Of a DNA stretch of 47,610 bases, positions 10,072-43,555 are shown one piece after another. Source of the stretch: Neocallimastix sp. 'constans' (Eukaryota); contig JBODTK010000131.1 of assembly GCA_050613775.1 (NCBI GenBank), forward strand, positions 434,001 through 481,610, written 5' to 3'. The stretch's first letter is position 1; every line of letters begins with the position of its first letter. Position numbers and translations under genes: made by a program. The notes beneath the pieces were generated by a model. The model had not been told where the DNA came from, did not search any database, and saw only the letters and a program-made list of their open reading frames with translations.

Positions 10072-10144
10072 TACCCGAACCCGGGTTCGAACCGGAGACC
10101 TTTTGCGTGTAAAGCAAACGTGATAACCACTACACTATTCGGAT
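10072..10144 (-). tRNA. tRNA-Val(TAC)
   Basis: Reverse complement ATCCGAA TAGTGTAGTGGTTATCACG TTTGC TT-TAC-AC GCAAA AGGTC TCCGG TTCGAAC CCGGG TTCGGGT A: full 73-nt cloverleaf. Confidence 0.95.
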
Positions 10145-10159
10145 ATCCTGTTGGTACTG

Positions 10160-10819
10160 TGATACGATACCACTATAAAAATAAGATTTAGGTAGGAAAT
10201 TTAGGTTAGAAATATTGTATAAATATTATTGGTCATAATAATTAAAATAATTTATATATAGTTATTCAAATAATTATTTTTAAAAGCATGGTTAATTCTT
10301 TTATCATAATTAAAATAGATAAATTATATTATTAATGATTCTATTATTATGATAATAAATTAATTCATCATTATTATTAATAAGTTTTATTTTATATTTT
10401 AAATATTATTTTGAGAATTATATAGTTTTAGGAGTTATATTATAAATATTGATGATTATATTTTATTTAGGAAATATATTTTTAAATATTGATAGTTATA
10501 TATTATTTAATTATGAAAATGTATTATTAAATAAACTTATTAGGAAATTAATAGTTAAAGAGATATGTTTAATAAAAAATATAATATTAAATAATAATTT
10601 TAACAATTATATAAAATTAAGAGAATGTAATAATAAATATTTATGTATGTAAAAATAAAATTATAAAAATAAATAAAGAATAAAATATTATTATAAAACA
10701 TTATTATTATAAATTATTTTCTTATATTTATTAGAATATATTATCGTGTCATAATTCCCTAGAGAAACGACCAAATAAATAAATAACTAGATATGGAATA
10801 TTTTAAATATACTGTATCA
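10160..10819 (+). repeat. Element A 5' LTR
   Basis: Direct repeat of 13101-13760 (offset 2941, the same offset as the duplicated 67-aa ORFs in the track). Confidence 0.95.
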
Positions 10820-10823
10820 AAAA

Positions 10824-10842
10824 TGGTGGAGAATCCGGGCGT
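10824..10842 (+). promoter_or_regulatory. Primer binding site, tRNA-Ala-like
   Basis: TGGTGGAGAATCCGGGCGT is the complement of ..GCCCGGATTCTCCACCA, a tRNA-Ala-type 3' end (acceptor strand ATTCTCC, compatible with G3:U70). Confidence 0.85.
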
Positions 10843-11144
10843 TTCTCTAGCATGATAATATGAAAATAATAAAAATTTGAAAATATAATAATAATAATAA
10901 TAATATAACAAAGAAAAAAAAAATAGCATGTAATAAAATAATAGTTTATTTTAACACGTAAAGATAATATTAATAGTTTTTAAAGACACGTAATAAAATA
11001 ATAGTTTAAAATAGTAAATAATAAAATAATAGTTATTTTAAAATGTTATAATAATATATTATTTAAAATAACGCGTAATAGATATAAATATAAACAAAAA
11101 AAAAAATTTTTTAAAAAAAAAAAAAAAAAAAAAAAATAATCAAA

Positions 11145-12800
11145 ATGAATGTTCAAGGCTTAATAAAAGAACTACCATTATTAGTCAATTATGGAAGGGA
11201 TATTGATAGATGGATTGAGGACTTTGAGGAAGTTATGGAATTATGGGAGATTTACACATTAAAGCAACAATACTTTTGGATAATTAAATGTGTAAATCAA
11301 GACATAAGTATTGAAATTAAAACATTAAAAGAAAAATATAACAAAAACAATTATCCAACATTAAAAGAAATACAATATGCCATTGAAAAATATTTAAATA
11401 TTACTCAAAGTGAAAAATGCTGGACTTTAAAGACCATAAAAGTTCCAAATGATACAAAAATTTCAATTTTTAATGTAACATACAGAAGACTATTAAAGAA
11501 TTTAGAGAGTGACTTTAGGAAATTAGTGACAATCGAAGATTATATAAATTCAATAAAAGTTAGACGTTACCCATGTCAACAAGTAATTACAAGAGGATGT
11601 AGAACTATAGAAGATGCTATGAAAACTGCTTCTCTGGCTGAAAGAATAGAAAATGAATTAATAGAATCTAATAAGGAAAAAAGAGAATACTTTGATAACT
11701 ATAAAATAACTTATAATAGAAGAAACAATAGAACTGACCATTATAACACGTATTTTAGAGAATATAGATTAATAAATAAAAATAATAATAAAAATTATAA
11801 AAATTTTAAATTTAATCATTACAATAATTATAATAAGGAATTAAAGTCTAATAATTATTATAATAAAATAAATAATTTCACGTGTAGACAAAACAAAATG
11901 AATTATTATAAAAGAAATTATAATATTGAACAAAATAAAAATTTTAATTATTTTGATTCGGATTATACTAATGTTGAATGTGGCAATTCAAATTTTAATG
12001 GTAAAGAAAATTATTTAAAATCTATGAATAATTCTAATTGTAATTCTTGCATGAATGTTAATTCAATATATAATTATTATATTAATAAAGAAAATTTGAA
12101 TTCATATTATTATTATGGTAATATTAATAGTTCTTCAAAAGGTATTTATAAAGAAATAATAAATAGTAATTATGATCATAATATTAATAGTAAAGATACT
12201 TGCACTATTGAAGAAAATTATAAATTAAATTCCATGGATGAAAATGTTAATGTTAAGGGAGAACCAGGAAATAAACACGTAAATAATGATAATGATAGAA
12301 TTCAAACTAAAATCACAACTTATAATGATAATATGGATAAACAAATTATTGAAGAAAATATAGAAGGTAATATGGTAATTAATAAATTGAGTGATACTAT
12401 TCTCGAAGGTAACGTATATAATCCATCACATAAACTAATTCCAGTAGAAAAGAAAAACGAAAACATATTATTATGTAAAGAGGAAAGTAAATTATTAGAA
12501 AGTAAGCCTATTGATAAATTGAAAATAAATAAAATTAAGATGAAAGGAAATAATTTAAATATTTATAATGAAATGATAAATGAAATTAAAATAAATTCTG
12601 ATAATAAAATAATAATAAAAAAAATACCTACTTTAGAAAATTCCAACCAAAATAATGGTAATAGCAAAAATAATTCAAAAAGAAAATTTAAAATTAAATT
12701 TAATTATAAAAATACAATTATTAAAAAGTATAATAATAATAGGAAAGATACAAAGTGTATTATCAGGAATTACAAATATAAAAGAAAAAGAAAAATATAA
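11145..12800 (+). CDS. gag: Gag-like protein, 551 aa, with long Asn/Lys-rich tail
   Basis: First ~170 aa are colinear with D Gag (LPLL..GRDIDRW / LPRL..ARDVDSW; YPTL / YPSI; EKC; VTIEDYINSI..R.YP..QVIT..C..IEDA...A.LAER). Confidence 0.85.
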   Translation: MNVQGLIKELPLLVNYGRDIDRWIEDFEEVMELWEIYTLKQQYFWIIKCVNQDISIEIKTLKEKYNKNNYPTLKEIQYAIEKYLNITQSEKCWTLKTIKVPNDTKISIFNVTYRRLLKNLESDFRKLVTIEDYINSIKVRRYPCQQVITRGCRTIEDAMKTASLAERIENELIESNKEKREYFDNYKITYNRRNNRTDHYNTYFREYRLINKNNNKNYKNFKFNHYNNYNKELKSNNYYNKINNFTCRQNKMNYYKRNYNIEQNKNFNYFDSDYTNVECGNSNFNGKENYLKSMNNSNCNSCMNVNSIYNYYINKENLNSYYYYGNINSSSKGIYKEIINSNYDHNINSKDTCTIEENYKLNSMDENVNVKGEPGNKHVNNDNDRIQTKITTYNDNMDKQIIEENIEGNMVINKLSDTILEGNVYNPSHKLIPVEKKNENILLCKEESKLLESKPIDKLKINKIKMKGNNLNIYNEMINEIKINSDNKIIIKKIPTLENSNQNNGNSKNNSKRKFKIKFNYKNTIIKKYNNNRKDTKCIIRNYKYKRKRKI

Positions 12801-12895
12801 TTTGATTATAATTCAATTAAATTTTCAAAATTCAAAATTCAAAATTCAAAAATTCAAAATTTAAATTATTAAATTTCAAATTTCAAATTTCTATA

Positions 12896-12926
<31 letters not shown>

Positions 12927-13003
12927 AAAAAAAATTTATACATAATATTTTTATGTTTATTGACTTTTTTAACAAAATATATATAAAATTTTAATTATTA
13001 AAT

Positions 13004-13051
<48 letters not shown>

Positions 13052-13060
13052 TTTTCGCCT

Positions 13061-13100
13061 GACTTCAAGGGACGAAGTCTTATTTAAAGTGGGGGAATCT
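13061..13100 (+). promoter_or_regulatory. Conserved pre-PPT hairpin plus polypurine tract of A
   Basis: GACTTC-AAGGGAC-GAAGTC, then AAAGTGGGGGAA just before the 3' LTR. Confidence 0.8.
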
Positions 13101-13760
13101 TGATACGATACCACTATAAAAATAAGATTTAGGTAGGAAATTTAGGTTAGAAATATTGTATAAATATTATTGGTCATAATAATTAAAATAATTTATATAT
13201 AGTTATTCAAATAATTATTTTTAAAAGCATGGTTAATTCTTTTATCATAATTAAAATAGATAAATTATATTATTAATGATTCTATTATTATGATAATAAA
13301 TTAATTCATCATTATTATTAATAAGTTTTATTTTATATTTTAAATATTATTTTGAGAATTATATAGTTTTAGGAGTTATATTATAAATATTGATGATTAT
13401 ATTTTATTTAGGAAATATATTTTTAAATATTGATAGTTATATATTATTTAATTATGAAAATGTATTATTAAATAAACTTATTAGGAAATTAATAGTTAAA
13501 GAGATATGTTTAATAAAAAATATAATATTAAATAATAATTTTAACAATTATATAAAATTAAGAGAATGTAATAATAAATATTTATGTATGTAAAAATAAA
13601 ATTATAAAAATAAATAAAGAATAAAATATTATTATAAAACATTATTATTATAAATTATTTTCTTATATTTATTAGAATATATTATCGTGTCATAATTCCC
13701 TAGAGAAACGACCAAATAAATAAATAACTAGATATGGAATATTTTAAATATACTGTATCA
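13101..13760 (+). repeat. Element A 3' LTR
   Basis: Copy of 10160-10819, followed by TSD ACTG. Confidence 0.95.
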
Positions 13761-14760
13761 ACTGTGGTAAAGAATGAATTAATAACCTTTATTTTATTAT
13801 TAATAATTCTTTACTAAATTGTACTTTCCTATATTCTTGATAACCTAAACTTAATAATAAAATTTAATTTATTTTGATATAAATTAATTTTAACTTGTAA
13901 ATAATGTAAATAAATTTTAATTAATTACTTTATTGTTATATTATTAAATATATGTATATATTAAAATACAATTGTAAATATTAAAATTATACTTTTAAAA
14001 TACTAAATTATTAAAAACTATTAATTAAATATTATTATAAAAATTATTATAAAATTATTAAAATTATTAATTAAATATTATTATAAAAATTATTATAAAT
14101 TATTAATATTATAAAATTATTAAAATTATTAAATATTATTATAAAAATTTATTTATTATAACTATTAAATATTATTATAAAATTATTAAGATTATTAATT
14201 AAATTTATTATTAAAAATTATTATTAAAAATTATTACTTATTATAAAAATTATTATTTAAATATTATCAAATTTATTAATTAAATATTATAAAAATTTTA
14301 TTTTATTTTGAAAATAATTACAAGTATTATTTAAAATAATTAAAGATTATTAAATTTATTATATTAATCTTTAAAAACAATTTATTTAACTTAAAAATAT
14401 CAAAGAAAATAGTAAAAACTATTTTCTATATATTTATTTTATAATTATTTTTAATTAAATTATATTTGAATATTATATTATTATATTTATAAAAATTAAA
14501 ACAAAAATGAATTATTGATATAAAATTAATTCAATAATTCTATAAAATTACTTAAATTATAAACAAATAATTATACCTTAAATTCAAAAAAAATTATAAA
14601 TATTGTAAATATTTCTTAAAAATTAAATATGTGTACTTTAAATAATAAAATTTTATATTAATAAAAAAAAAATAAAATAACTTTTAATAAAGAATTATTT
14701 TTTTTTAAATCAAAGCAGCGTAATACCCGTCCCCCCCTGCTTGATTTTAAATATCTAAGT

Positions 14761-14779
14761 GTCAACCCCGAGTCTACCA
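14761..14779 (-). promoter_or_regulatory. Primer binding site of C1 element (tRNA unassigned)
   Basis: Minus-strand TGGTAGACTCGGGGTTGAC, 2 nt after LTR end ..TTTTACA. Confidence 0.65.
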
Positions 14780-14781
14780 AT

Positions 14782-15339
14782 TGTAAAAGGTAAGTTTATT
14801 ATTAACTAAAATAACGAATAATAACTAATTCTAAAGGCTAAGATAACTTAACACCTCTCTATTCGAGTTGTTAATAATAAACACTAAATTAATTAATTCT
14901 ATAATTATTATTTCTTATTACACTAGAATATAGCGCAGCACTTTATAACTCTATTTGTTATCAGTTACTGGGCTTACACTGAGCAATATTTTTTATTTAA
15001 TAATTATATTTTTTATTTAATAATATTAATATTTATAATAACAATTTACGTTAATAGTAACGCTAGTGCGTTACAGTTACAAGTTCAATTATTATTTATA
15101 CATGTCAATAATATTATGATTGGTAAATAATTTAATTTAACTTAGTTTACTAATCACTAAATAAAATATATTTAAATAAATATTTAACTATATAATTATT
15201 TATAAATTAATAAAATTTAATGTACGAAAGTAATAAAAGATTTTATTTGATTAGCCGAAATTGCTAGCTGTTTAGAGATACGTTACGTAACCAAAGAACT
15301 ATCATTGGATAGGCTTGAAGTTACCATGTATCTGTTACA
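14782..15339 (-). repeat. Family C LTR copy 1 (5' LTR of a largely deleted element)
   Basis: TGTAA..TTACA ends; near-identical to 21442-21993 and 30955-31511; PBS adjacent on the left. Confidence 0.85.
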
Positions 15340-15346: not shown

Positions 15347-15959
15347 TGTTATAGTTTGCTTATTATCTTAATTTAGAATTTAATTTCTAAAAGTGATAAT
15401 AAGTATAACAAAATTAAATGTTTTATAATCAATAAATTAAAATTTTATTAAAACACAAAATATCTTAAACTTATAAAAAAAAAAGCAAATTTCTTTTAAG
15501 TTAAAAGATAATAAAATTTTAAATTAATAATTTTTGAGAAATTAATTATTTTTTTTTTATTAATTCTGTTTCTTTAAATTTGAGATTATTTATACAAGTT
15601 TATATATTTTTCTTTTAAATTAAAGATTTTAAAATAAAACTATCTAATTATTATTTTTAAACAATTATCATTATTTTTAAACTAAAGTTTACATTAAGAT
15701 TTTTATAATATATCATTTTTAATTTTTATTATCAAAATTACATTGTTCTTTAAAATAAAATATTTAATATTTAATAATTTTAATTATTTTAACAATTTAA
15801 TTTATTTATATTATTTATTTAAAATATTTACTTTTATTATTATTAATTAATTTATAGTTATTGTTTAGATGGTAATATGATTTATTTTATTTTGTTTAAT
15901 AATTTTATTCATTTTCAATAATATAATGTTTTATTGATTTATAATTTAATCCTTTATCA
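15347..15959 (-). repeat. Element B 3' LTR
   Basis: 613 bp; preceded on the minus strand by PPT-like ATGGAGGA and the hairpin. Confidence 0.93.
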
Positions 15960-16020
15960 AGTCCTCCATGCTTAAAATGATACTTCGTCTCTTGAAGTAT
16001 TAAAATTTTCTTCTCTAATA

Positions 16021-18586
16021 TTATAAGGAAAAAATATTTTTAATATGAACATTTCTTGGTAATAATTTTCCTGTTTGGGGATCTTCCAAAACTACTGTAT
16101 TAAATATTGGTTTTCTAACTACTTTAAATGGTCCGTAAAAGTATGGGTCTAATTTTGATCTATTTATTAATTTAATCATAAAGTAATCTCCAACTTTATA
16201 TTTTCTTTTCAATGCTTTTGAAAATCCGATCCTGTGTTCCCAATATTTATTTGCATATTCTGAATATTCGATTGCTTCCTTTACCCACTTATAATGTCTC
16301 AAAAATCTCCTAAAGTTAAATTCTTCCTCACTTTCTCCTTCTTCCTGATGTATATCCGGAAACATTATCTCCATTGGCCATGTATCTGTTCGTCCATATA
16401 ATAACTCGAAACTACTGAATTTTGTTTTTTTACTCTTTGTTGTTCTTAGTGCCCATAATACTGATGGTAGGCATTCATCCCATTCCTTTTCATTCTCCAG
16501 TAAAAGTCTCAATATTTTCCCAATTTCTCTATTCCTGTTTTCGATCATTCCGTTTGATGGGGGTGGTGAGGTGAAACAAAATGAACCCATGATCCATAAA
16601 GATCTATCATCATCTTTGTTATATCTGAAATAAACGAACTTCCACTGTCTGTGATTATTAATTCCGGTGGTTCATGACGTGCTATAACTTCTGTCAAAAA
16701 TTTGATAACTTGATCTGATCTAATATCTGGTATAGCCTTTGCTTCAGGCCATTTAGTAAAGTAATCTACTAAAGTTATAATATAATTGTTACCTTGTTTC
16801 GTTGTTGGTAATGGTCCAACAATATCCAATCCCACTCTGGTGAACGGCCTTTCTACTGGTGTTATATGGTCATCAGTATTTTTAGCGATTGGTTTTGGCC
16901 TGAAGAGTTGACACCTATGGCAAGACTTTACCCACATTTTAACATCGCTCCAGATTCCAGGCCAATAATACGATTGTAATATTCTAAGAGTTGTTTTTTC
17001 AGCTCCTTCGTGGCCGACGTTATGTGCTCTATCTATTATGTTTTTCTTATCTTCATCTCTAACGATAACTTTCAAATACATATTATTTCTTTTATAATAT
17101 AAAGTATTGTTTATTATTTGATGTCTTTAGTCCTTCGATTGTTAGAACGTGACCTAATACTTCAACTTTATCTTTGAAAAATTGGCATTTTTGAAGATTA
17201 ATTGATAAATTATATTTGGAAAATATTTCAAATACTTGCTTTAAGTGATTGATGTGTTCTTTCATACTTTTTGAATAAACTACAATGTCATCAATATATA
17301 CAAACAAACATTCACCTATTAATGGCAGTAAAATTCTAATCATTTCACGTTGAAATGATGCCGGTGCATTGGTTAAACCAAAGGGCATCACTAGAAAATT
17401 GTAGTTACCGTATTTCGTAGTAAATGCAGTCTTTTCTATATCATCTTTGTTCATGGGTATTTGGTGATACCCGGAAAATAGATCTAATGCTGAAAAAATT
17501 TTCGCTCCTCTTACTGATGTTATGAGTTCATCTATGAATGGTAGTGCATATGAGTCTTTTATTGTTATATTATTTAATTTTCTGTAATCAATGCACATTC
17601 TCCATTTTCCATTCTTTTTCTGTACCAAAAGAACTGGAAAAGACCATGGAGAGTGAGATGGCTCAATTAGTCCTTTCTTTAGTAAGGATACAATTTCTTT
17701 TTTTAATATTTCTGAGTGCTCCTTAGACATTTTATATGGTTTTAATTTTATTGGGTTGTTTGTAAGTGTTATTATAGAATGTGGTTCTAGTTTTGCTGTG
17801 GATAACTGGGAAAGTGATGTTGCCATACAACTCTTATTGTTTAATATTAAATTTCTAAATTCTGTTTTTATTTCCTCTGGTACATTACTAATAATTTCTT
17901 CTAAAGTTTTATTGAATTCTTTTTCCTCTTCATCTGTAATAATTACTGCGTTAATAAGTGGTGTATTATTGCCATTATCATTTATAATTTCTACAATTTT
18001 TTGTTAAACTGTTATCGTCATTTTTTTGATAAATAGAATCATCGTCAGGATCTATTAATAGTCTGTATTTTTTTTGTATGCTTCTCCCAATGATTATGTC
18101 ATAAAAAGGATTAGTATAATCAATGATATAAAATTTATCATATATTACCAGTTTATCATTAATTTTTAATTTTAAATCAGTATAATAATTTGTTAATACA
18201 ATAGTATTATCCGCTAATTTAATTTCAATTTCTTTATCCATTTTATTTATGTTTTTACATTTTAATTTATTGTAACTTTATTGTGTTATAATATTTATGT
18301 TAGCCCCAGTATCAAATAAAACCTTTAATGGTATATTATAACTTTCCCCAATAATAATAGGAATATTAGTGTTGGCTATGGAGCAGATAATCTTTTCAAC
18401 TCTGGGCTTTAATTTTTGTTCTAATTCTTTTCTTATAGATGGGCTAGCTGCTAAAAGTTGCGATAGGTTTATTTTTGGGAATAAATTTTTAAACTCTTCT
18501 GTGATGTTAAATTTTTGATCTTTTTCTAATAGTTGTATTTCAGTCATGTTTCTTTTTGTAAGTACTTTTGATTGTTTTTTTTTATA

Positions 18587-18618
<32 letters not shown>

Positions 18619-20807: not shown

Positions 20808-20823
20808 AGAGGATTCTCCACCA
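20808..20823 (-). promoter_or_regulatory. B primer binding site, tRNA-Ala-like
   Basis: Minus-strand TGGTGGAGAATCCTCT, 2 nt from the 5' LTR. Confidence 0.85.
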
Positions 20824-20825
20824 GT

Positions 20826-23205: not shown

Positions 23206-23236
<31 letters not shown>

Positions 23237-24006: not shown

Positions 24007-24105
24007 TTTCAAAATTTTACATTTTAAAATTTAACATTTCAAAATTTTACATTTTAAAATTTAACATTTCAAAATTTTACATTTTAAAATTTAACATTTC
24101 AAAAT
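24006..24105 (+). repeat. 30-bp tandem repeat x3.3
   Basis: ATTTCAAAATTTTACATTTTAAAATTTAAC repeated perfectly three times plus a partial unit. Confidence 0.9.
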
Positions 24106-32114: not shown

Positions 32115-32152
32115 TGATGCCCCCGTTAAGTTTAGACTTCGTCCCTTGAAGT

Positions 32153-35100
32153 CTATACTTCACATAGTCTGTATGGTACAATGTTCTTTAAGTGAACATT
32201 TCTCTCAGCGATTTCATTAGTTACAGGATCGCAAAGTGTGACCGTGTTAAATTTCTTCTTAACTATTTTCATAGGGCCAAGGAAGAATGGGTCTAATTTT
32301 CTTCGGTTAATAAGTTTGACAAGGACAAGATCACCAGGGTTATATTCAGCCTTCATTCTCTTCATTTGTTTTCGCCTGTCTTCCCATAACTTGTTAGCAG
32401 TATTAATGTTGTTAATGGCTTCTTTAATCCAGGCATAATGTTTAGTAAATCTTCTTATTAAAAATTCTTCTTCACTTTCGTATTCTTCTTTCTTGTCTAA
32501 GTTCAGTGTTAATTCAAAGGGTTGTAAATCGCGACGTCCATATAACAACTCAAAACTGGAAAACTTAGTAGTTTCATTCTTACAGGTGCGAATAGCCCAT
32601 AAAGCGCTTGGTAGCATCTCATCCCAAATGGTAGTGTTGCGATTACAAAGAATTCTCAAGTACTTGCCAATTTCTTTATTTCTATTTTCGACTTCGCCGT
32701 TGGATTCTGGATGGTATGTTGTAATATAGTGTACGTAAACTCCATACAAGTCGAGAAAAGCTTTCGTTTTGTCCGAACAGAATTGGGGTCCATTGTCCGT
32801 TATTAAAATCTCAGGCGTTCCATGTCGAGCAAAGACTTTGGATAGAAATTGGATAACGTCATCTGATTCAATGTTCTTAGTGGGTTCAGCTTCAACCCAC
32901 TTAGTCAGGTAATCTACTAAAACTATAATGTATTGATTACCTTTCTGAGTAACTGGTAGAGGTCCTACAATGTCTAGACCTACCTTGGTAAATGGAAGAC
33001 CGGGTTTCGTGGCTGTATCTTCAGGTTGATAGTTAAATGTTTGTGGCTTAAAGAGTTGACAAGTTTTACAGGTCCTGACCATGTATTTAACATCTTGTAT
33101 CATGTTGGTCCAATAGTAATCTCTTTTCAAGCGGTTGTATGTCTTGAAAGTACCTTCGTGACCGATACCATGGGCCTTAAGAATAAGTTTGACTTTTTCC
33201 TCTGGGTTATCTATAACTTTTCTTAGCATTCCATTGTCTTTATAAAATTTTTCTCCATTCATTAAAGTAAACTTGTCTTTTAATAGATTTAATAAGTTGT
33301 TTTCATCTGTTTCACTATTTACACTCACGGTTGTAGTTGCTAATATATCGCTTTTGATGGATGGCATCCTCGAGAGAGCGTCTGCGATAACATTCTTTTT
33401 ACCAGGTTCATATTGAACACGAACCTTCAACATTGATAAGAGTAATACCCAGCGCGTTTGCCTTGCGTTGTTGGGTTCTTTGGAGGTGAATAAACTAACT
33501 AGTGGTTTGTGGTCTGTATAGAGGATAGTGGAACAGTTATTGCTAGAGATGTAAGGTTTGAATTTCTTTACGCTATAGAATGCAGCTGTTCCTTCTAAGT
33601 CGGTGATAGAGTAATTCTTTTCGGAAGATTTTAATGAACGGCTAATGAAGTGGATGGGTTTTTCCTTACCATCTTCCTCTTTTTGTAATAGAACGCCACC
33701 GATACCATCATAAGAGGCGTCTGTACGGATGATGAAAGGCTTTTCGAAGTCAGGCATAATTAATATAGGTGCCTTCACAAGTCTATCTTTAAGTTCTTGG
33801 AAGCTGTTTTCTTGTTCTGTATTCCATTCGAAATCAGTACCCTTTTTCAGCAGTTTATATAGTGGTCTAGCCATCTTCGCAAAGTTGAATATAAATTTTC
33901 TGTAGTAGCCTACAGCACCTAAAAAGGACCGTAGTTGAGTTATATTCTTGGGAGGCAACCAGTTGTGAATAATTTCAGTTTTTCCTGGGATTGGAGCAAC
34001 TCCTTCAACTGATAAAATATGTCCAAGAAGTTCTACTTTTTTCTTGAAAAAGTGACATTTTTCTAAGTTTATCTTCAATCCGTTGTTCTTGATTATTGTA
34101 AAGACTTTTCTTAAATCTTGGATGTGTTCTTCAATTGATGGTGAGAATATCACCAAGTCATCTATATAAACGAACATGCATACTCCAATTAGCGGGAAGA
34201 AAATTCTGTTCATTTCCCTCTGAAAAGTACCAGGAGCATTGCATAGTCCGAACGGCATCACCCGGAATTGGTAGTTCCCAAACATAGTGGTAAAAGTGGT
34301 CTTGGGAATGTCTTCTTTATTCATTGGAATTTGGTGAAAGCCGGAGAATAAATCTATAGTAGTAAAGACCATAACCTTCCTTCCAATAGAAAATAAAATA
34401 CTATCGATAATTGGTAACGCGTAGGAATCTTTGATGGTAACATTGTTCAGCTTACGGTAGTCCACGCACATCCTCCACTTTTTATTTTTCTTGAGGACGA
34501 GTACTACTGGAGACGACCAAGGGGAGCTGGATGGCTCTATCAACTTGTTTTTTATAAGTTTTGTTATTTCTTGCTTTAGAGCTTGAATTTGAACTTTGGA
34601 CAACCGGTATCCTTTCTGCTTGATCGGCTTTGCATTTTCTATTAATTGAATGGTATGTGGAAGCAGTTTCGTTGGCTGGAGTTCATCAATTTTGATTGCT
34701 AAGATGATGATGAATTCATGAAATAGTGAGTTAACTTTTCTTCTGTATTTTCTCGGTAATTCATCCAATACTTTGTTCAACAACTCTTGTTTCTTTAAGG
34801 GTCCGTCTTTAACTTCTTCAATTTGATCTGTTTCATCATGGTAGTTCTCATCTTTAACCTTATTTACAAGACAGAAGGCATAAGAGCTTGATGCATCTTT
34901 ATTGTTGGTAAGATTGTGATTCTCATTATCGTCACTCTCCTTCGATTCTTCCTCATCAGTCCCTAAAGGAGACACACGATCCCATGATTCTTCACTGAGC
35001 ATCTTGCATAAGTGATTGTCGATAGGATGTACGAATAATTTATTGTCTTTTAATGTATTGAACCCTATAAGTATATCGAAGATATTTTTATCGTTTTCAA

Positions 35101-36004
35101 CAACTCTAAATACATCTTTAATTGTGGTATCCCCAATTTTGACATCCAATAGATAGAGTTCTGAATCCAATTTCTTCTCAGAGAAAATTTGTACAATATT
35201 ATTATTTGTGTACCCCATTGGTACCAAGTTTTGTTTTTCTTTTATCCTTGTTAAGTAATTCTTTGTCACCAAGTTTAAGCTAGCACAGGTATCCAAGAAA
35301 GCTATACCTTCAATCCCATAAACATAACATTTTATACTGGCGATATCACTTCTTGAAATAGTGGATAGAACTATTTCGTTTAGAGATTGTCCTTGAGTAT
35401 TGCTGTCCTTTAGCTTAAGTAGTTTAACTAGTTCCGATCTAAGCTTAGGACTTATATCTAATAGCTGTGTGATGGAGATATTAGCTAGTTTGTTGTTTAA
35501 GTCATCAGAGATATCATAACTGTTCTTTCCTTCCATCAAGGCTATATGTTTTTCGGTAGATGTCCTTTTAGATTTGACTTCTTCAGCTTTATCACTAGGA
35601 AGTTTTCCTTTTGTTACTTCTTTAGATTGATCATCTCTTGATGGATGAGTACTTGTTTCAGTTTCTTCTATTATTTCTTTTTCTTTATCTAATTTGGTTT
35701 TTCTTTTCACGGACTTGATGGATGGCTGAGCTATCACAGAAAGGTCAATTTCTTCAAGCTTTTCTGTAGTAGTAGGTGTAGACACTGGTGATTCAAACTC
35801 CATAGTAGTATCCTGAGTATTTGTTGCAGCTTTTCCTTTCCTAGATTTTTCTTTTGAAGAGTATGGGGTTTCTGCCATACTATTATTCTTTTTCTTTCTT
35901 CTTACTACCGCTGCTAATATGTCATTATTTGGAACTAGTGGTAAATGGTTCTTTTCGTTGGTTTGATTAAAGGAAGTTTCCCTTCTTCCTTTTACCAGTT
36001 TAAA
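32153..36004 (-). CDS. pol: D Pol (protease-RT-RNase H-integrase), entered by -1 frameshift
   Basis: 1241-aa ORF from 35878, with the frame open upstream to the TTTAAAC slippery site. FLDTCAS, CVDYRKLN, YIDD, TDASYDG, HGIGHEG..CKTC, GLDIVGP, TDNG, SNGEVE, LDPFFLGPMKI. Confidence 0.95.
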   Translation of the reverse strand, partial: FKLVKGRRETSFNQTNEKNHLPLVPNNDILAAVVRRKKKNNSMAETPYSSKEKSRKGKAATNTQDTTMEFESPVSTPTTTEKLEEIDLSVIAQPSIKSVKRKTKLDKEKEIIEETETSTHPSRDDQSKEVTKGKLPSDKAEEVKSKRTSTEKHIALMEGKNSYDISDDLNNKLANISITQLLDISPKLRSELVKLLKLKDSNTQGQSLNEIVLSTISRSDIASIKCYVYGIEGIAFLDTCASLNLVTKNYLTRIKEKQNLVPMGYTNNNIVQIFSEKKLDSELYLLDVKIGDTTIKDVFRVVENDKNIFDILIGFNTLKDNKLFVHPIDNHLCKMLSEESWDRVSPLGTDEEESKESDDNENHNLTNNKDASSSYAFCLVNKVKDENYHDETDQIEEVKDGPLKKQELLNKVLDELPRKYRRKVNSLFHEFIIILAIKIDELQPTKLLPHTIQLIENAKPIKQKGYRLSKVQIQALKQEITKLIKNKLIEPSSSPWSSPVVLVLKKNKKWRMCVDYRKLNNVTIKDSYALPIIDSILFSIGRKVMVFTTIDLFSGFHQIPMNKEDIPKTTFTTMFGNYQFRVMPFGLCNAPGTFQREMNRIFFPLIGVCMFVYIDDLVIFSPSIEEHIQDLRKVFTIIKNNGLKINLEKCHFFKKKVELLGHILSVEGVAPIPGKTEIIHNWLPPKNITQLRSFLGAVGYYRKFIFNFAKMARPLYKLLKKGTDFEWNTEQENSFQELKDRLVKAPILIMPDFEKPFIIRTDASYDGIGGVLLQKEEDGKEKPIHFISRSLKSSEKNYSITDLEGTAAFYSVKKFKPYISSNNCSTILYTDHKPLVSLFTSKEPNNARQTRWVLLLSMLKVRVQYEPGKKNVIADALSRMPSIKSDILATTTVSVNSETDENNLLNLLKDKFTLMNGEKFYKDNGMLRKVIDNPEEKVKLILKAHGIGHEGTFKTYNRLKRDYYWTNMIQDVKYMVRTCKTCQLFKPQTFNYQPEDTATKPGLPFTKVGLDIVGPLPVTQKGNQYIIVLVDYLTKWVEAEPTKNIESDDVIQFLSKVFARHGTPEILITDNGPQFCSDKTKAFLDLYGVYVHYITTYHPESNGEVENRNKEIGKYLRILCNRNTTIWDEMLPSALWAIRTCKNETTKFSSFELLYGRRDLQPFELTLNLDKKEEYESEEEFLIRRFTKHYAWIKEAINNINTANKLWEDRRKQMKRMKAEYNPGDLVLVKLINRRKLDPFFLGPMKIVKKKFNTVTLCDPVTNEIAERNVHLKNIVPYRLCEV

Positions 36005-36864
36005 GACTTATTTTCTTTTTGAAGTTGGCCTTTTTCTTCCATCTCTGCTAATTCCCTGAAAGAGTAAGGACATTGGTTTAAGTAGTGTCCCACTTGACCA
36101 CATTTATAGCATTTTCTATTATTTTGTTGATGTGTGTTTGAATTATCTTGGCGTCTTCTAGTCTGTTCTTGATTTGACTTCAGTTTATTTTCTTTTACAT
36201 ACCTATAATCGCTTCGGTCGTTATCCCTTGTGTTGTATTTTCGGTTACCAAAGCCCTTGAATGGATGACCTCCGTAGTTGACTTTATAATAATAAGGTTG
36301 GTTGGATTGAAATGTTGCTAAAACAGTTTCAGGCTTACGTAGGAAGTTTTCTTCAGCCCTTTCGGCTAGTTCGGCTTCTTCGAAGGCATCCTCCAGATCA
36401 TAACACCTTTGGGTGATTACTTGAGACCTTGCATAAGGTCTACTAGCAATGGATTCAATGTAATCGTCTACCGTAATGAAAGATTGGTATAGTTTGGAAA
36501 GACTATTATAAAGCTTTTTGTACCTCCAGTTAAAGTTTTGAATACTTTCACCCTTTCTGATTCTAAGTTTCTGGAGTCTCTTGCATTTTTCCTGGGGAGT
36601 AACTTCAAGTGCATCTTCTATAGCCTTTTTCATCTGGTCGATGGATGGATACTTCTTTCCCCCTTCTTCGTCGGTAGTTACTAAGTCTTGTAGTATACCT
36701 CTTAGTTTGCCTTCCACACATTCCATAGCCCAGGAATGTATGTTCATAGGTTCAGTGATGTTTGCTAGTCTCATGATCCTAGCAAATTCATCACCCCAAG
36801 AATCCACATCTCTTGCTGTTTCGTTTAGACGAGGTAGAATCTCTTCGAGTTCCCTGATCTTCAT
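35992..36864 (-). CDS. gag: D Gag, 290 aa, one CCHC zinc knuckle
   Basis: CYKCGQVGHYLNQC; lies between PBS and pol. Confidence 0.93.
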   Translation of the reverse strand: MKIRELEEILPRLNETARDVDSWGDEFARIMRLANITEPMNIHSWAMECVEGKLRGILQDLVTTDEEGGKKYPSIDQMKKAIEDALEVTPQEKCKRLQKLRIRKGESIQNFNWRYKKLYNSLSKLYQSFITVDDYIESIASRPYARSQVITQRCYDLEDAFEEAELAERAEENFLRKPETVLATFQSNQPYYYKVNYGGHPFKGFGNRKYNTRDNDRSDYRYVKENKLKSNQEQTRRRQDNSNTHQQNNRKCYKCGQVGHYLNQCPYSFRELAEMEEKGQLQKENKSLNW

Positions 36865-36995
36865 TTCTTTAGTTTTTTTTTTTTCTGTTTTATTTTATTT
36901 GCTTTATTATTATTATTATTATTTCGTTTATAATATTTTATTTAATCTTCTTTCTTTTTTACTATCTATTAATGTTTCATATTATTATACTTTCG

Positions 36996-37012
36996 TCCTG
37001 CATAGCTCGCCA
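36996..37012 (-). promoter_or_regulatory. D primer binding site, tRNA-Arg-like
   Basis: TGGCGAGCTATGCAGGA is the complement of ..TCCTGCATAGCTCGCCA, which resembles eukaryotic tRNA-Arg(ACG) 3' ends; 7 nt from the LTR. Confidence 0.75.
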
Positions 37013-37019
37013 GAAATTA

Positions 37020-37622
37020 TGGTACAGGACTTTTGAAATTGATGGATGTATAATAATATATTGGTAAATAGATAGTGGACGTATAAAAATTACGAAAAAC
37101 TTATACAATATTTATTTATTTATTTATTGATTATTTATTAATTTATTTATTTAAAAATTTATTTAACTATATATTATTCATCCATTTATTTATTTGTTCA
37201 TTTATTTATTTATTCCTCCATTACATAAAAAAAAAGAAAAGAGAGAGATTTAAAATAATATTATTACAAAATATTTTATAAATTTTGGTAATACATTGAT
37301 TAGTTAAAAATAATTTTGTGTAACAATAAAATAATAATAAAATTTTAGATATGAATATTAATAATAAAAATAATAAAAAAATTTATAATATAAAATAAAA
37401 TTTATCAAATGTATAATAAAAATATAATAAGAATATAATAAAATATTTATTTTATAGCAAAATATTAATAATTAATAATATATATATTTATATAATAATA
37501 AAGGAAATATTGATAAAGTTAATAAAGATAATAATTAATTAATAAAATAGATTTAAAACATATTTATATGGAGAAATATTAAAATTATTATAATTTAAGG
37601 TATTTGGGTAAATACCGTATCA
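37020..37622 (-). repeat. Element D 5' LTR
   Basis: 603-bp copy of 31512-32114. Confidence 0.95.
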
Positions 37623-37627
37623 TACAA

Positions 37628-38553
37628 TGATTTATACCTAATATTCTTAATCTACAAAAATTAAATTTTGCAGAAGTGAATAAAAGGATAAATACTGAAT
37701 AAAAATTGATTTAAGGAATTTAAAAAAATAAATATGTTTTATTATTAAACACAAAAATGTTTTATTAAAAAAAAATTTATTTTTATTTTAATATTAATCT
37801 TTATTTATTTAATAATTAATTTTGTTTAAATTAATAATATAATAATTGTTAAAACTAATAAAATAATAAAATGAAATATTTATTATTTAAACTAATTTAT
37901 TTTAAATTTTAATAATAAAATTGATTATTAATAACTAATAAAATATTTATAATAATTTATTAACTAATTAATAATAAAGAATAATTTATAAGAAATATTT
38001 ACATGTTTTTATATTTTTCTTTGATTTTAAACTATTTACATTAAAAATAATAAAATTAATAAAAGAGAAATAAAGAATAATTTATTATTAAATTAAACAA
38101 TATTTACAATTAAAATGTTTATAAAGATGAGTTTTAAAATGTTATTTTAATTACAATTTGTTTATAAAAGTTGAGTTATAAAATAAATAAAATAATCATT
38201 ATTTTAAATAAAAGTAACTTAAAAAATTATTTAACTATTTAATTTTAATTTTGCGTTGTTTATAAGTTTGTTTATTTGTTGTTTATAATTTATTAAATAT
38301 GTTTATTATTTTGTTTATTTGTTGTTTTAGAAAAATATTATTTATTAATTTATTTTAGTTTTTAATTAAAATTATTAATGATTAATTAATTTATTATTAT
38401 TTTATTTTAATTATCTTTATTTAATTAATTTTTCTTAAATATGGATTTAATTTTTTTTTGAATGGATTAATTTTTGGGTTAAGCTAGAAAACTTTAATAA
38501 CATGAATTTGTTTTTTATTATTTATTTTAATTTAATAATTTTGTTATTTATCA
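37628..38553 (-). repeat. Element E 3' LTR
   Basis: Copy of 42449-43374. Confidence 0.95.
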
Positions 38554-38681
38554 ATTTCTCGGCCCTTAAGAGTCAACTTCGTCCCTTGAAGTTGTATCAT
38601 TTTCTTGTAGTACATAAGGAAAAACATTTTTTATATGAACATTTCTTTCAAGGAGTTTTCCTGTTTGTGGATCTTCAAGAA

Positions 38682-40076
38682 CTAAAGTGTTGTTTCAGAG
38701 TCTTTTGATGATAGTCTTGAAAGTGCATCATCGAAAAGATTTCTTTTTCTTTTTTCATAAACTAAATTGGTTTTGTACTTATTAAATTCTTCTATCCAAC
38801 GGGCATGTCTATTGTTGTTAGGAATATTTTTCTTGAGCAAACCTAAAAGTGGCTTATAATCAGTTATAAATTTTATCGGTTTATTATTGTTGATTGACAA
38901 TGTCCTACTTAAATAACAAATTGGATGTTCTAATTTGTCTTCCTCCTTTTGCAAAAGAGTACTTCCGATATCTTTATTCTTTTCTATTATTATTGCATTA
39001 CACATAGGCGTCTTTAAAGAAGTATGGGTATTATATATTTCAGTTATTCTTTTAATTCCCTTTTTTGTTTTTTGATATAAGCAATCATCATCTGGATCAA
39101 TGTAGAGTCTGTACTTCTTTTGTATACCTCTTCCTAATATAATATTAAAGAATGGATTTGTATAATCTATTATATAAAATTTTTCATTCACAGTTAAGTT
39201 ATTATTTATAGTTAATCTTAAATTTATATAAGAATTAGTATGGAGTATTGTACCATCGGCAATTGTAATAGTTTCAGAAAAGTCGCAATGATTAATAGTT
39301 ACATTTTCTAATTCTTTTAGAGAATTTTTTGTTATAATATTAATATTTGCACCAGTATCAAAAAGTATCTTAACCATTTTATTTCCAATTTTTCCGCACA
39401 AAATAGGAATATTTAAATTTTGAATGGAATAAAGTATTTTCTCAACTCGTGGTTTACAACCTTGTTCTAGATCTTTTCTTATAGATGGACTAGCTGATAA
39501 TAATTGTGTTAGGCTTATTTTAGGATATAAATTATTGGCTTCTTCTAGAATATTGAATTTATTTTCAGGTTTTAACATTTGTATTTCGGTCATGTTTCGC
39601 TTACCTTTTGTTTTAACTTTTTCTGGTATAGTATTTGAATTATTATCTTGATAATTATTTTCATTAGGAGTATTGGGTTGGGGTTTGTCAAAATTGGTTG
39701 CACGAACACTTTCACTATTATTATTAGATTCTTCATGCGTAATATTATTATTAGATAAATTCATGTCTTCTATATCATTTGTAATTTCTCTTCTTCTTTT
39801 ATCTCTAATGGCTTTCTTCTGTTGTTTAACAGCTTTTATATTTGGTTGATTTAGAATGGAAGGTTTTACTATAGATTTATTACTTGGTGATATTTTATTT
39901 TTATCCAATGCATTCTTACTTAGTGATTTTCTCTTTTGAGCTGCATTAATCATATAATTATTGTTTCCTTCATATTCTATAGTATATTCATGATTATAGT
40001 TGTTTGTTGCAATTTTATTTATCTCGGGAGATTGCGTACTCCCGATAACTAATTTAAATGGTTTAATTCTGGACAT
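38682..40076 (-). CDS. pol: E truncated Pol: spacer + aspartic protease fused in frame to RNase H fragments
   Basis: LFDTGANIN..IILGR protease, then IGSTLLQKEE..HPICYLSRTL..ITDYKPL..DALSRL; no RT motifs. Confidence 0.88.
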   Translation of the reverse strand: MSRIKPFKLVIGSTQSPEINKIATNNYNHEYTIEYEGNNNYMINAAQKRKSLSKNALDKNKISPSNKSIVKPSILNQPNIKAVKQQKKAIRDKRRREITNDIEDMNLSNNNITHEESNNNSESVRATNFDKPQPNTPNENNYQDNNSNTIPEKVKTKGKRNMTEIQMLKPENKFNILEEANNLYPKISLTQLLSASPSIRKDLEQGCKPRVEKILYSIQNLNIPILCGKIGNKMVKILFDTGANINIITKNSLKELENVTINHCDFSETITIADGTILHTNSYINLRLTINNNLTVNEKFYIIDYTNPFFNIILGRGIQKKYRLYIDPDDDCLYQKTKKGIKRITEIYNTHTSLKTPMCNAIIIEKNKDIGSTLLQKEEDKLEHPICYLSRTLSINNNKPIKFITDYKPLLGLLKKNIPNNNRHARWIEEFNKYKTNLVYEKRKRNLFDDALSRLSSKDSETTL

Positions 40077-40977
40077 TCTTCAACAATGTGACCAATACGC
40101 TGACAATTTATGCATAGGTTGATTTTTAAATCGGATAATTTTTTTGTTATATCATCTAGTTCTTTATCAGTGAATTGAGAACCTTTTAAAGTTGCTCTTC
40201 TCTGTTCGACTCCTTTATTGAATTCTACAGGGTTGTAAAAATTTTTATTTGTAGTAAAATTGTTGTTATAGTTATTGTTTCTAAATTTATTATTATAACT
40301 GAAATTTTCATTAGTCCTAATATTAGAGACAAAGGGGATTTTATTGTAATAATTAGTGTTAAAAGATCTAAAATTAGTATTTTTATTATTGTTATTATTA
40401 GTGTTATTTAGATTCTTCTTTACATTTGAGAATTGAGTTTTAGATTTTGGTTTATTATCTTCAAGAAGTTTAAGCATTTTTTCTTTCTTTGAAGTTATTT
40501 CCATTGCATCACTTAATTTAGTAGGTTCTGATTCTAACAAATACTCATACATTTTAGACCAGTTTCTAAATGCATTTATGTAGTATGGAGTACTAATATA
40601 ATCCTTTCCATCTAATTGTAATTGATTTAAGAGTTGTAAGAATTTTGTATCGAAGTCGGAAACTTTTTCACCTTTCTTAATGGTTAATGTTGATATTTCC
40701 AAAAATTTTACATTCTTTGGCGTACAAGGTTTAAATCTTTTCTTTAAGTTTTCTAAAATTATTTCATAAGAGTCAGCTTGTGTTTTATTTAAAGAATTTA
40801 TAACAATAGTTCTTGCTTTATCTGTAGTTACAGCAATTAAATATTCATTCTTTTCTTCGTTTTCAATTTTATATTTTCGACACCAATTTTCAAAGGCGAA
40901 TTTCCATTCTTCATATTGGACTTTTTCTTCACCTAATATTGGTAATCTACTAAAAGTAATAGCTTTGGTAGTTGTTT

Positions 40978-40981
<4 letters not shown>
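40049..40981 (-). CDS. gag: E Gag, 310 aa, CCHC knuckle
   Basis: CINCQRIGHIVEEC; homologous to B Gag. Confidence 0.92.
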
Positions 40982-41038
<57 letters not shown>

Positions 41039-41454
41039 TTAATTATTATTATTAGTAGCAGTAGTAATATTTCTAAAATTATTAATTCTTATTATCTTTA
41101 GTTTATCTTGAATGATTTCCCGTCCTTATAGTACGGTTGTAGAATAATACGACGTTTGGTCCCACTGATTATAGGAGTTTTACACTACGTCTACACCTAA
41201 CGTAGATCTCTACTTATAATCAGCGCCTACTCCCCCGTATTGATTCTTATTCTACAGTCCGTTAGCTCTTACTGCAATAATACACTAGTATTAAGGGTAA
41301 GAGATTCCTACTATAAGTATCAATCAGTCAAGAGAACAGAAGCAGTTCCTCCAACTAAAAAAATACTTTTCTTTAATTGTTTTCCTTAATTTAAATTTTA
41401 TGGTTTTCTAATTTTATTTTATTTTTTTTTTTTTTTTTTTATTATATATTTATT

Positions 41455-41494
<40 letters not shown>

Positions 41495-41947
41495 TTAAAA
41501 AAATATATTTTATACAATAATATCCTAGAAAATATTAAAAAAAATAAAAGGTTAAGTAGTATAATGGTATTTAAAAATTTTTATTATTTAAATATTTAAA
41601 GAAGAATAAAAAGTTAAATTATAAATATTTATTATTAATAATTCTCAAAAGAATATTAATTACGATTTTCCAATAATATAAGTAATAAGTAGGTAGTATA
41701 CTCGTAGCCAGCTTGCCCACTTGCTCAGGCGTCATGTACTACTCGTACCAGTGATTCTCCTACACGTTTATACGTTTGTAGAATAGTTCAGAGCTTCCCA
41801 GCGCGCCGACTGTGAAAGAATAAACTAATCACGGAAACCACTTATTATTTTACTTATATTATTGCTTCTAAAGCAACAATATTCTTTTTTGAAAAATAAA
41901 TAATAATTTTATAATAGAACTTCTTAAAGTTCTTCTGTTTTATTTTA

Positions 41948-42014
<67 letters not shown>

Positions 42015-42431
42015 TAAAATTTTACTAATAAATTTTATTATTATTATTATTTATTACTTATAATATATACTTTATTATTTAATTAAATTGAATAATATGA
42101 ATACTATTTAATTATCTTTAAAAAAAATTTTTTTTTTTTTTTTATTTAATTATTAAAGATAAATTTAATTTAATTTGCAGTTTATTTAACGTATATTATT
42201 TGTTGATTAATTTATATTAATAACTTTAATTTATAATAATTTATTGCTATAATATTTTATTTGCATATTATTAAGATAAATTTATTTGAGTCTATTACTA
42301 TGAATAATTTAGAGTTATTCTAAAACTAGACTAATTTATTGTAATAATTATTGTTTAATATTACCATTGAATAACTAGGCTTATTCTAATATTAAACTAA
42401 AAAAAAAATTTTACTTACCACCGGGGCAACA

Positions 42432-42447
42432 AGAGGATTCTCCACCA
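42432..42447 (-). promoter_or_regulatory. E primer binding site, tRNA-Ala-like
   Basis: Minus-strand TGGTGGAGAATCCTCT, 1 nt from the 5' LTR; identical to the B PBS. Confidence 0.85.
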
Positions 42448-42448
42448 T

Positions 42449-43374
42449 TGATTTATACCTAATATTCTTAATCTACAAAAATTAAATTTTGCAGAAGTGA
42501 ATAAAAGGATAAATACTGAATAAAAATTGATTTAAGGAATTTAAAAAAATAAATATGTTTTATTATTAAACACAAAAATGTTTTATTAAAAAAAAATTTA
42601 TTTTTATTTTAATATTAATCTTTATTTATTTAATAATTAATTTTGTTTAAATTAATAATATAATAATTGTTAAAACTAATAAAATAATAAAATGAAATAT
42701 TTATTATTTAAACTAATTTATTTTAAATTTTAATAATAAAATTGATTATTAATAACTAATAAAATATTTATAATAATTTATTAACTAATTAATAATAAAG
42801 AATAATTTATAAGAAATATTTACATGTTTTTATATTTTTCTTTGATTTTAAACTATTTACATTAAAAATAATAAAATTAATAAAAGAGAAATAAAGAATA
42901 ATTTATTATTAAATTAAACAATATTTACAATTAAAATGTTTATAAAGATGAGTTTTAAAATGTTATTTTAATTACAATTTGTTTATAAAAGTTGAGTTAT
43001 AAAATAAATAAAATAATCATTATTTTAAATAAAAGTAACTTAAAAAATTATTTAACTATTTAATTTTAATTTTGCGTTGTTTATAAGTTTGTTTATTTGT
43101 TGTTTATAATTTATTAAATATGTTTATTATTTTGTTTATTTGTTGTTTTAGAAAAATATTATTTATTAATTTATTTTAGTTTTTAATTAAAATTATTAAT
43201 GATTAATTAATTTATTATTATTTTATTTTAATTATCTTTATTTAATTAATTTTTCTTAAATATGGATTTAATTTTTTTTTGAATGGATTAATTTTTGGGT
43301 TAAGCTAGAAAACTTTAATAACATGAATTTGTTTTTTATTATTTATTTTAATTTAATAATTTTGTTATTTATCA
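42449..43374 (-). repeat. Element E 5' LTR
   Basis: 926 bp; ends 14 bp from tRNA-Ser. Confidence 0.95.
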
Positions 43375-43388
43375 ACAATTCTGAAGTA

Positions 43389-43470
43389 GTCAGTTTGTCC
43401 GAGTGGTTAAGGAGTCAGACTTGAAATCTGATGGGCTCTGCCCGCGCAGGTTCAAACCCTGCAGCTGACG
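43389..43470 (+). tRNA. tRNA-Ser(TGA)
   Basis: GTCAGTT..TCAGA CT-TGA-AA TCTGA, long variable arm GGGCTCTGCCC, GCAGG TTCAAAC CCTGC AGCTGAC G; 82 nt, G73. Confidence 0.95.
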
Positions 43471-43483
43471 CTTCAATTGGTTG

Positions 43484-43555
43484 GGGGTGTTAGCTCGGCG
43501 GTAGAGCAATTGACTGCAGATCAATAGGTCTTCGGTTCAAATCCGGAACGCCCCT
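43484..43555 (+). tRNA. tRNA-Cys(GCA)
   Basis: GGGGTGT..ATTGA CT-GCA-GA TCAAT..TTCGG TTCAAAT CCGGA ACGCCCC T; 72 nt, U73. Confidence 0.95.

Follow-up and report, generated by a model that had tools for sequence, protein, structure and literature searches.

Stacked insertions of Ty3/gypsy retrotransposons immediately upstream of tRNA genes in the anaerobic gut fungus Neocallimastix

The window analysed here, a stretch of 47,610 nucleotides from Neocallimastix sp. 'constans' (assembly GCA_050613775.1, contig JBODTK010000131.1, positions 434,001 to 481,610 of the forward strand), contains two divergent tRNA genes, tRNA-Val and tRNA-Ser, and the 33 kb separating them consist almost entirely of nested long terminal repeat (LTR) retrotransposons. 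Nine insertions with checkable target-site duplications (TSDs) lie 11–17 bp upstream of one or the other gene, and two more (E' and G) were placed at similar distances but are unverified. The stacking upstream of tRNA genes is a real feature, and the behaviour itself has several precedents; reports of elements that aim at tRNA starts were otherwise found for yeasts and social amoebae only. Probably, the elements belong to a gut-fungal Ty3/gypsy clade whose integrase is, in the likely case, held by a tether at the RNA polymerase III (Pol III) initiation complex and cuts at a fixed distance, which would explain the stacked insertions.

Results

Insertion sites, target-site duplications and nesting order

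Element ends were determined by self-comparison of the window and exact mapping of the termini. Four elements with matched LTR pairs (A, B, D and E) were obtained, together with the solo LTRs H and C1–C3, the truncated E', the degenerate F and the tentative G. For the reconstruction of the original insertion sites, each element was deleted in turn, mechanically and together with one TSD copy (peel-back), and its distance to the tRNA gene's mature 5' end was recorded. The features are listed below in positional order; the last value in each element row is this distance.

Val side
10072–10144, minus strand: tRNA-Val(TAC), the gene targeted by the left stack (ARAGORN; Rfam RF00005, 60.9 bits)
10160–13760, plus strand: element A, non-autonomous, gag-only open reading frame (ORF) at 11115–12800; LTRs 10160–10819 and 13101–13760, 660/660 identical; TSD ACTG/ACTG; 15 bp
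13765–14779, plus strand: solo LTR H; 4-bp TSD with one mismatch; 15 bp once A is removed
14782–15339, unstranded: solo LTR C1; perfect 5-bp TSD; 13 bp
15347–21440, minus strand: element B, frameshifted gag-pol (reverse transcriptase [RT], integrase); LTRs 613/615 bp, 99.8% identical; TSD ATGT; 15 bp
21442–21993, unstranded: solo LTR C2; perfect 5-bp TSD; 12 bp
22004–24722, plus strand: element F, degenerate or recombinant A-like unit; LTRs 22004–23117 and 24256–24722; TSD with one mismatch; 17 bp, lower confidence
24725–25523, minus strand: E' LTR, 97.9% identical to E and truncated by a copia fragment; far end lost, so that the TSD is not checkable; 15 bp by reconstruction
Ser side
29970–30944, minus strand: G, tentative LTR-like repeat (TG..CA); its end lies at 16 bp
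30955–31511, unstranded: solo LTR C3; 5-bp TSD with one mismatch; 11 bp
31512–37622, minus strand: element D, intact Ty3/gypsy element; LTRs 603/603 identical; TSD TACA; 15 bp
37628–43374, minus strand: element E, gag and internally deleted pol; LTRs 926/926 identical; TSD ACAA/ACAA; 14 bp
43389–43470, plus strand: tRNA-Ser(TGA), the gene targeted by the right stack (ARAGORN; Rfam)
43484–43555, plus strand: tRNA-Cys(GCA), 13 bp behind tRNA-Ser (ARAGORN; Rfam)

The hallmarks of LTR retrotransposons are present (LTRs with TG..CA termini, primer-binding site [PBS], polypurine tract [PPT] and TSD). Of the TSDs, nine could be compared: six show no mismatch, and H, F and C3 have one each; that of C1 is perfect once the mutated proximal TSD copy of H is dropped. 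The joint chance of these matches, calculated from base composition, is ~1e-16, a post hoc value obtained with the TSD length (4 or 5 bp) picked by family. The TSD comprises 4 bp in A, B, D, E and H, whereas that of Ty3 comprises 5 bp. All TSDs exclude the tRNA genes, which are thus not cargo of the elements. The steps for F (17 bp) and E' (15 bp) are the weakest of the peel-back, because the two LTRs of F, with lengths of 1114 and 467 bp, do not match as a pair (their local score is 99, compared to 63±9 and a maximum of 89 for shuffled sequences) and the far end of E' has been lost to the copia fragment.

An earlier note on this DNA, made from the sequence alone, had located the A LTR 15 bp from tRNA-Val and the E LTR 14 bp from tRNA-Ser with clean 4-bp TSDs, which was confirmed by terminus mapping. 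Its reconstructed distances (15 bp for D, B and E', 17 bp for F and 11–13 bp for the C family) were reproduced by peel-back, with lower confidence for F and E', and solo LTR H, missing from its list of families A–F, has been added.

Insertion had occurred at the tRNA-proximal end of the preceding element in 9/9 cases (1 in 512 if both ends were equally likely). The distances to the tRNA gene are 15, 15, 15, 17, 14 and 15 bp for the 4-bp-TSD families (standard deviation [SD] 1.0) and 13, 12 and 11 bp for the C family, and the corresponding offsets to the previous LTR edge are 0, 2, 3, 2, -1 and 4 bp (SD 1.9) and -2, -5 and -5 bp. The tRNA distance is therefore family-specific and tighter than the offset to the earlier LTR edge, which ranges from -5 to +4. 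As the reconstructed order demands, LTR identity on the Val side drops with distance from the tRNA gene, from 100% in A to 99.8% in B and an unmatched pair in F. Element A is oriented head-to-head with tRNA-Val. The tRNA-Val(TAC) gene (10072–10144), whose first base is an A and whose acceptor stem contains two G-U pairs, probably continues to bind Pol III factors, because the newest insertion at this site is A with its identical LTRs.

No insertion was found in the window in front of tRNA-Cys(GCA) (43484–43555), the second gene of the tandem behind the right stack.

An independent locus in metagenome contigs

A scan of metagenome contigs with a Pol profile returned 47 loci, comprising 41 low-GC relatives and six unrelated gypsy elements (L041–L046; 42–44% GC, 27–35% identity) that were removed before junctions were counted. 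With the exception of L035, the low-GC contigs (40/41), most of which end inside an LTR, were scanned for tRNAs with Rfam, and only one tRNA locus was found, consisting of tRNA-iMet followed by tRNA-Ser in L023. In this contig, retrieved by Pol homology alone, a whole LTR, which is homologous to the L005 LTR over its full length, ends 14 bp ahead of tRNA-iMet. On its other side, the LTR lacks a TSD and adjoins a truncated pol, so that the locus has been rearranged. At three loci, the two in the window (nine TSD-checked insertions at 11–17 bp) and L023 (14 bp), LTRs lie in the narrow interval of ~10–20 bp before the mature tRNA 5' end that is typical of elements targeting Pol III starts. The earlier proposal that insertions recur at a set spacing in front of tRNA genes is thus supported, with one independent locus in agreement. 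Relaxed-threshold ARAGORN calls in the metagenome loci were rejected for want of Rfam confirmation.

Junctions were read in 3' tails of >350 nt and in the 5' ends of 21 loci. Five outer LTR junctions were readable, of which one is located at a tRNA gene (L023), one adjoins a C-family LTR (L001) and three are without a tRNA within ~150–200 bp. In L001, the LTR end meets the first base of the C-family LTR (L001 5923–6251) in the geometry of D and C3; this contig contains no tRNA, and its testimony is indirect. One in five junctions at a tRNA corresponds to P ~1.5e-3, with the tRNA density of the window itself taken as a generous bound.

The tandem pairs Ser-Cys (13-bp spacer) and iMet-Ser (2-bp spacer, L023) are probably dicistronic Pol III units giving one transcript each. 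An LTR precedes only the first gene of each pair (window 43389–43555; L023 5792–5947). The empty front of the second gene (Cys; Ser in L023) fits a start-site landmark, and selection would give the same pattern.

Proteins of element D

Element D contains a gag gene with a CCHC motif (35992–36894) and a pol gene (32153–36007) that encodes 1284 aa without stops and lies in the -1 frame at a TTTAAAC site; pol is likewise found in the -1 frame with TTTAAAY sites in B and E. Its domains (protease motif at 237, RVT_1 505–665, RT_RNaseH 728–858, Integrase_H2C2 935–989, rve 1010–1100) follow the order protease-RT-RNase H-integrase, which assigns D to Ty3/gypsy (Metaviridae). A domain search gave no match to a chromo or SH3_Tf2-1 domain in D, and no chromo Pfam is listed for any clade homologue of its Pol protein, so that these elements do not qualify as chromoviruses. 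The tail following the GP motif has a median length of 42 aa (range 22–112; motif found in 91/107 homologues).

The predicted structure of the D integrase (predicted local distance difference test score [pLDDT] 83, predicted template modelling score [pTM] 0.46) comprises an N-terminal, a catalytic and an SH3-like C-terminal domain (CTD), joined by a long helix. In this model, a 41-residue linker helix (275–315) leads to the β-barrel of the CTD (323–374), and the protein terminates six residues beyond the barrel, at 380. Column conservation is 0.73 in the CTD versus 0.74 in the RT core. A search with the linker-CTD region gave 79 matches among 226 candidates, all of them clade members, the absence of others being weak evidence. 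The fold matches that of the Ty3 integrase (PDB 7q5b) in the core only (Z 19.9, root-mean-square deviation [rmsd] 6.3, 225 residues aligned), and the fold search returned retroviral and foamy virus integrases for the core, which is uninformative on targeting.

The interior of D was matched at 99–100% in the listed pieces of three of four sequencing runs, and the runs containing D include faecal and gut metagenomes; contigs of the four runs aligned to 29900–38700 yielded no LTR flanks that could be used. Over 32085–36858, near-identical D contigs were ~10x deeper than 88–90% variants in three runs, hinting at roughly ten young D copies, although depth is no copy number.

One clade, two Gag lineages and the C family

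Approximately 110 relatives of the D Pol protein are listed (47–100% identity), nearly all from ENA, JGI, Logan and NCBI contigs; the only named ones among those listed are five Orpinomyces (Orpsp1) gene models (47–73% identity). These names and the low GC content point to the Neocallimastigomycota as the most likely host phylum, in agreement with the anaerobic fungi presumed in the earlier note. Identity is at least 47% inside the clade and ~34–38% outside. In a quick IQ-TREE analysis of the RT core (71 rows, drawn with midpoint rooting, Ty3 and DGLT-A not included, row P0019 dropped for its missing RT start), the clade's 34 rows, among them D, B, L005, L015, L017 and L023, all fell on one side of a branch with an SH-aLRT value of 99, with the gypsy element at 1–2734 of the window outside. 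LTRs adjacent to tRNA genes occur in all three main sub-branches (D with the L005-type, B, and the H-type), and targeting is therefore probably ancestral to the clade. H was linked to the LTRs of two metagenome elements, matching the beginning of that of L017 (96% over 239 nt) and the full-length LTR of L015 (75%). A and E, which lack an RT, were placed in the clade by Gag similarity and their common 4-bp TSD. The families with a 4-bp TSD (A, B, D, E and H) appear to stem from a single Ty3/gypsy radiation rather than from unrelated lineages. The multi-family guild envisaged by the earlier note is not supported in that wording: the autonomous families form a single monophyletic RT clade, with the C family as a possible second lineage.

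Two Gag lineages can be distinguished, A/D (33% over 146 aa) and B/E (52% over 106 aa), with a weak cross-match (30% over 57 aa), which bears out the previous count of at least two. Three PBS types had been counted in the window, of which only two are clear: one is found in A, B, E and, with one change, F, and the other in D. The supposed PBS beside C1 was rejected, as this PBS-like text is the end of the H LTR. The A/B/E/F type would fit tRNA-Ala and that of D tRNA-Arg. A third type, beginning TGGCGCCC, is found in clade members outside the window (L002 878, L003 638) and is presumably tRNA-Lys-like.

The solo LTRs C1, C2 and C3 are 94–95% identical among themselves and may represent a second, unrelated tRNA-targeting lineage. 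No internal region of the C family was found; its 5-bp TSD and 11–13 bp spacing resemble those of Tj1.

Other features of the window and additional searches

The window is very AT-rich (GC fraction of 0.10–0.40 in 1-kb intervals, ~19% GC by window profile). Its three tRNA genes were each found by both ARAGORN and Rfam at 58–63 bits; intron-mode ARAGORN calls were rejected because Rfam did not confirm them. Two broken Ty1/copia elements (25524–27912 and ~3134–8200), the first of which truncates E', have no end near any tRNA 5' end and provide an informal contrast within the window. Positions 1–2734 contain a broken Tf-like gypsy pol with an SH3_Tf2-1 domain, 38% identical to D in the RT-RNase H region. 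A related repeat (74–75%) is found at 9150–9566 and 45036–45580, downstream of both tRNA loci and ~0.5 and ~1.5 kb from the tRNA 3' ends. G showed no match to any known family.

Viral contigs gave no match by protein or LTR-end patterns; ten matches to the pre-PPT motif were discarded as chance hits without similarity to Pol or the window. A pattern for the C LTR had no matches (0) in genome contigs. The Pol scan of genome contigs returned 12 short contaminant contigs in prokaryote metagenome-assembled genomes (MAGs), two of them apparently identical to L001 and L003, and ARAGORN detected no tRNA in these 12. The GTDB MAGs concerned, labelled Bacilli, Methanosphaera and Erysipelotrichaceae, hold these fungal retrotransposon contigs (L058–L069) as binning contamination. 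DNA searches of the five MAGs yielded only AT-rich noise, and the 24 tRNAs of one MAG, taken as the archaeon's own, were looked at for GC content only.

Discussion

Comparison with known tRNA-targeting elements

The clade behaves like Ty3, DGLT-A and Tj1 (PMC5911963, PMC5006619, PMC4600332). The review table in PMC5911963 lists tRNA-targeting elements from ascomycete yeasts and dictyostelid amoebae only. DGLT-A elements insert 13–33 bp (mean 15) upstream of tRNA genes, in either orientation and with several families per genome (PMC5006619). They share with this clade the order RT-RNase H-integrase, the lack of a chromodomain, a short integrase tail and a canonical PBS, as well as the ~15-bp mean distance, the use of either orientation and the presence of several families per genome. 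Differences are that DGLT-A has a single gag-pol ORF, whereas two overlapping ORFs with a -1 slippery site are found here, and that its host is an amoeba with a gene-dense genome of 34 Mb. Tj1 of Schizosaccharomyces japonicus inserts in one orientation only (PMC4600332).

Ty3 inserts 1–4 bp before a start that lies ~12 bp upstream of the tRNA gene, and the distances observed here match those of both DGLT-A and Ty3 (PMC5006619). In the Ty3 intasome, an extended linker helix sets the SH3 CTD on TBP, and a vestigial chromodomain is placed on Brf1 (PMC8632968). Common to Ty3 and D are the narrow interval at the Pol III start and, for D as judged from its model, a long helix linking the catalytic core domain (CCD) to an SH3 CTD; the vestigial chromodomain is absent across the clade. 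Ty3 uses a +1 frameshift between gag and pol (PMC5911963), in contrast to the -1 frame found here. No protein named as Ty3 or DGLT-A was among the best matches of D Pol, and Ty3 is not a nearest sequence relative.

No mention of tRNA targeting in anaerobic fungi, or in other fungi that diverged early, came up in a literature search, subscription papers, including Navaratna et al. 2024, being outside its coverage; in the literature covered, the suggestion that such targeting is undescribed in anaerobic fungi thus held. Navaratna et al. (Fungal Genet Biol 172:103897) reportedly surveyed the LTR retrotransposons of anaerobic gut fungi and probably covered these families as abundant gypsy elements; its abstract is not known to mention tRNA targeting. 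A 2026 review describes the LTR elements of gut fungi as largely uncharacterised (PMC13728883).

A model for stacking

The integrase would be tethered to the Pol III initiation complex, most likely to TFIIIB via its CTD, and would cleave near the transcription start, at a fixed distance. The long CCD-CTD linker helix is predicted to present the SH3 CTD to TBP/Brf1 without the chromodomain used by Ty3. Each new copy would enter the gap that separates the tRNA gene from the copy before it and displace the older one, giving rise to stacks of up to seven elements. Solo LTRs would result from LTR-LTR recombination, and the gag-only A and the pol-deleted E could rely on enzymes supplied by autonomous relatives, for instance D or B. 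The C solo LTRs likely stem from a second lineage reading the same landmark.

Several observations weigh against this model. D lacks the chromodomain, the means by which Ty3 binds Brf1. The evidence comes from three tRNA loci in all, two of them from a window chosen for this very feature, and the F and E' steps require that one substitution be assumed and involve an LTR pair that does not match. No tRNA was found within ~150–200 bp of the L004 3' end, the L023 5' end and the L038 3' end; junctions of this kind are expected in stacks and for the far end of an element, yet they are not positive evidence. Finally, contig depth, when summed across the LTRs of E and C, amounts to ~10–60x that of the D interior (four runs, 29900–38700; depth is no copy number), and many LTR copies may therefore lie away from tRNA genes, or be stacked.

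Alternative explanations

Targeting could be real with a tether other than TFIIIB, such as Pol III itself, TFIIIC or the bent or opened DNA of the start site. This explanation, which we consider unlikely but the strongest competitor alongside shared ancestry, draws on the missing chromodomain that mediates the Ty3-Brf1 contact, on the use of Pol III subunits by Ty1 (PMC5911963) and on the statement that the mechanism of DGLT-A is unknown (PMC5006619). However, the interval of 3–4 bp per family fits Ty3 and TFIIIB and not the 1-kb range of Ty1 (PMC5911963), and the linker helix and SH3 CTD, which touch TBP in Ty3 (PMC8632968), are present in the D model.

To a similarly low degree of probability, targeting may go back to an ancestor shared with dictyostelid DGLT-A (or yeast Ty3) and would then be no new invention. 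The insertion distance is that of DGLT-A (mean 15 bp), as are the short, chromodomain-less integrase tail (32 aa in DGLT-A), the CCHC Gag and the canonical PBS (PMC5006619). On the other hand, no DGLT-A or Ty3 protein is named among the best matches, the 20 nearest clusters outside the clade that were looked up carrying no organism names; identity falls from at least 47% within the clade to ~37% outside; Ty3 scores 357 bits compared to at least 518 bits for 150 gypsy representatives; and neither the single ORF of DGLT-A nor the +1 shift of Ty3 corresponds to the -1 frame of pol in D, B and E (PMC5911963).

Local hot spots or selected survivors, with families inserting widely and only some copies residing at tRNA genes, appear improbable. 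They would accommodate the LTR depth far above that of the interior, the 3/5 outer junctions without a nearby tRNA and the loss of targeting in some DGLT-A lineages (PMC5006619), but selection cannot yield a 7-bp interval used 9–11 times, and the sole tRNA locus in contigs not selected for this feature also shows a spacing of 14 bp (P ~1.5e-3 for 1/5). It is least credible, and very improbable, that the elements seek LTR ends, with the first copy near each tRNA gene arriving by chance and the others following: although every insertion lies ≤5 bp from an earlier LTR edge and the LTR end in L001 adjoins a C LTR on a contig without a tRNA, the tRNA-proximal end was used in 9/9 cases, the old edge is missed to the inside or outside (-5 to +4) while the tRNA distance stays family-specific, and the chance required for each of the three founder events at 14–16 bp (Val, Ser and L023) is ~3e-4 or less.

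Significance

Tethering to the Pol III initiation complex thus remains the preferred reading. A wider version, which we put forward tentatively and which could be correct or not with slightly more doubt than trust, holds that a phylum-specific and still active radiation of chromodomain-less gypsy elements and, in addition, the second, 5-bp-TSD lineage C arrived independently at integration with base precision at Pol III start sites, with SH3 as the only contact to TFIIIB, in large, repeat-rich genomes to which the usual compact-genome account does not extend, and that D constitutes a native safe-harbour system.

The genomes of anaerobic gut fungi are large and repeat-rich. Targeting of tRNA genes in an early-diverging fungal phylum with AT-rich, large and repeat-rich genomes would test the explanation of this habit as an adaptation to compact genomes. 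That explanation refers to compact, gene-dense genomes (PMC5006619), and the genomes of anaerobic gut fungi are described as very AT-rich (PMC6883316). A chromodomain-less integrase with Ty3-like spacing offers a way into how DGLT-A-like integrases find tRNA genes, and the stacks preserve the order in which as many as seven elements arrived at a single base-precise site. Engineering tools for anaerobic fungi are described as not established (PMC6883316); if the wider reading is true, the intact element D with its identical LTRs would give these fungi, which are genetically intractable, a safe-harbour system of their own for integration.

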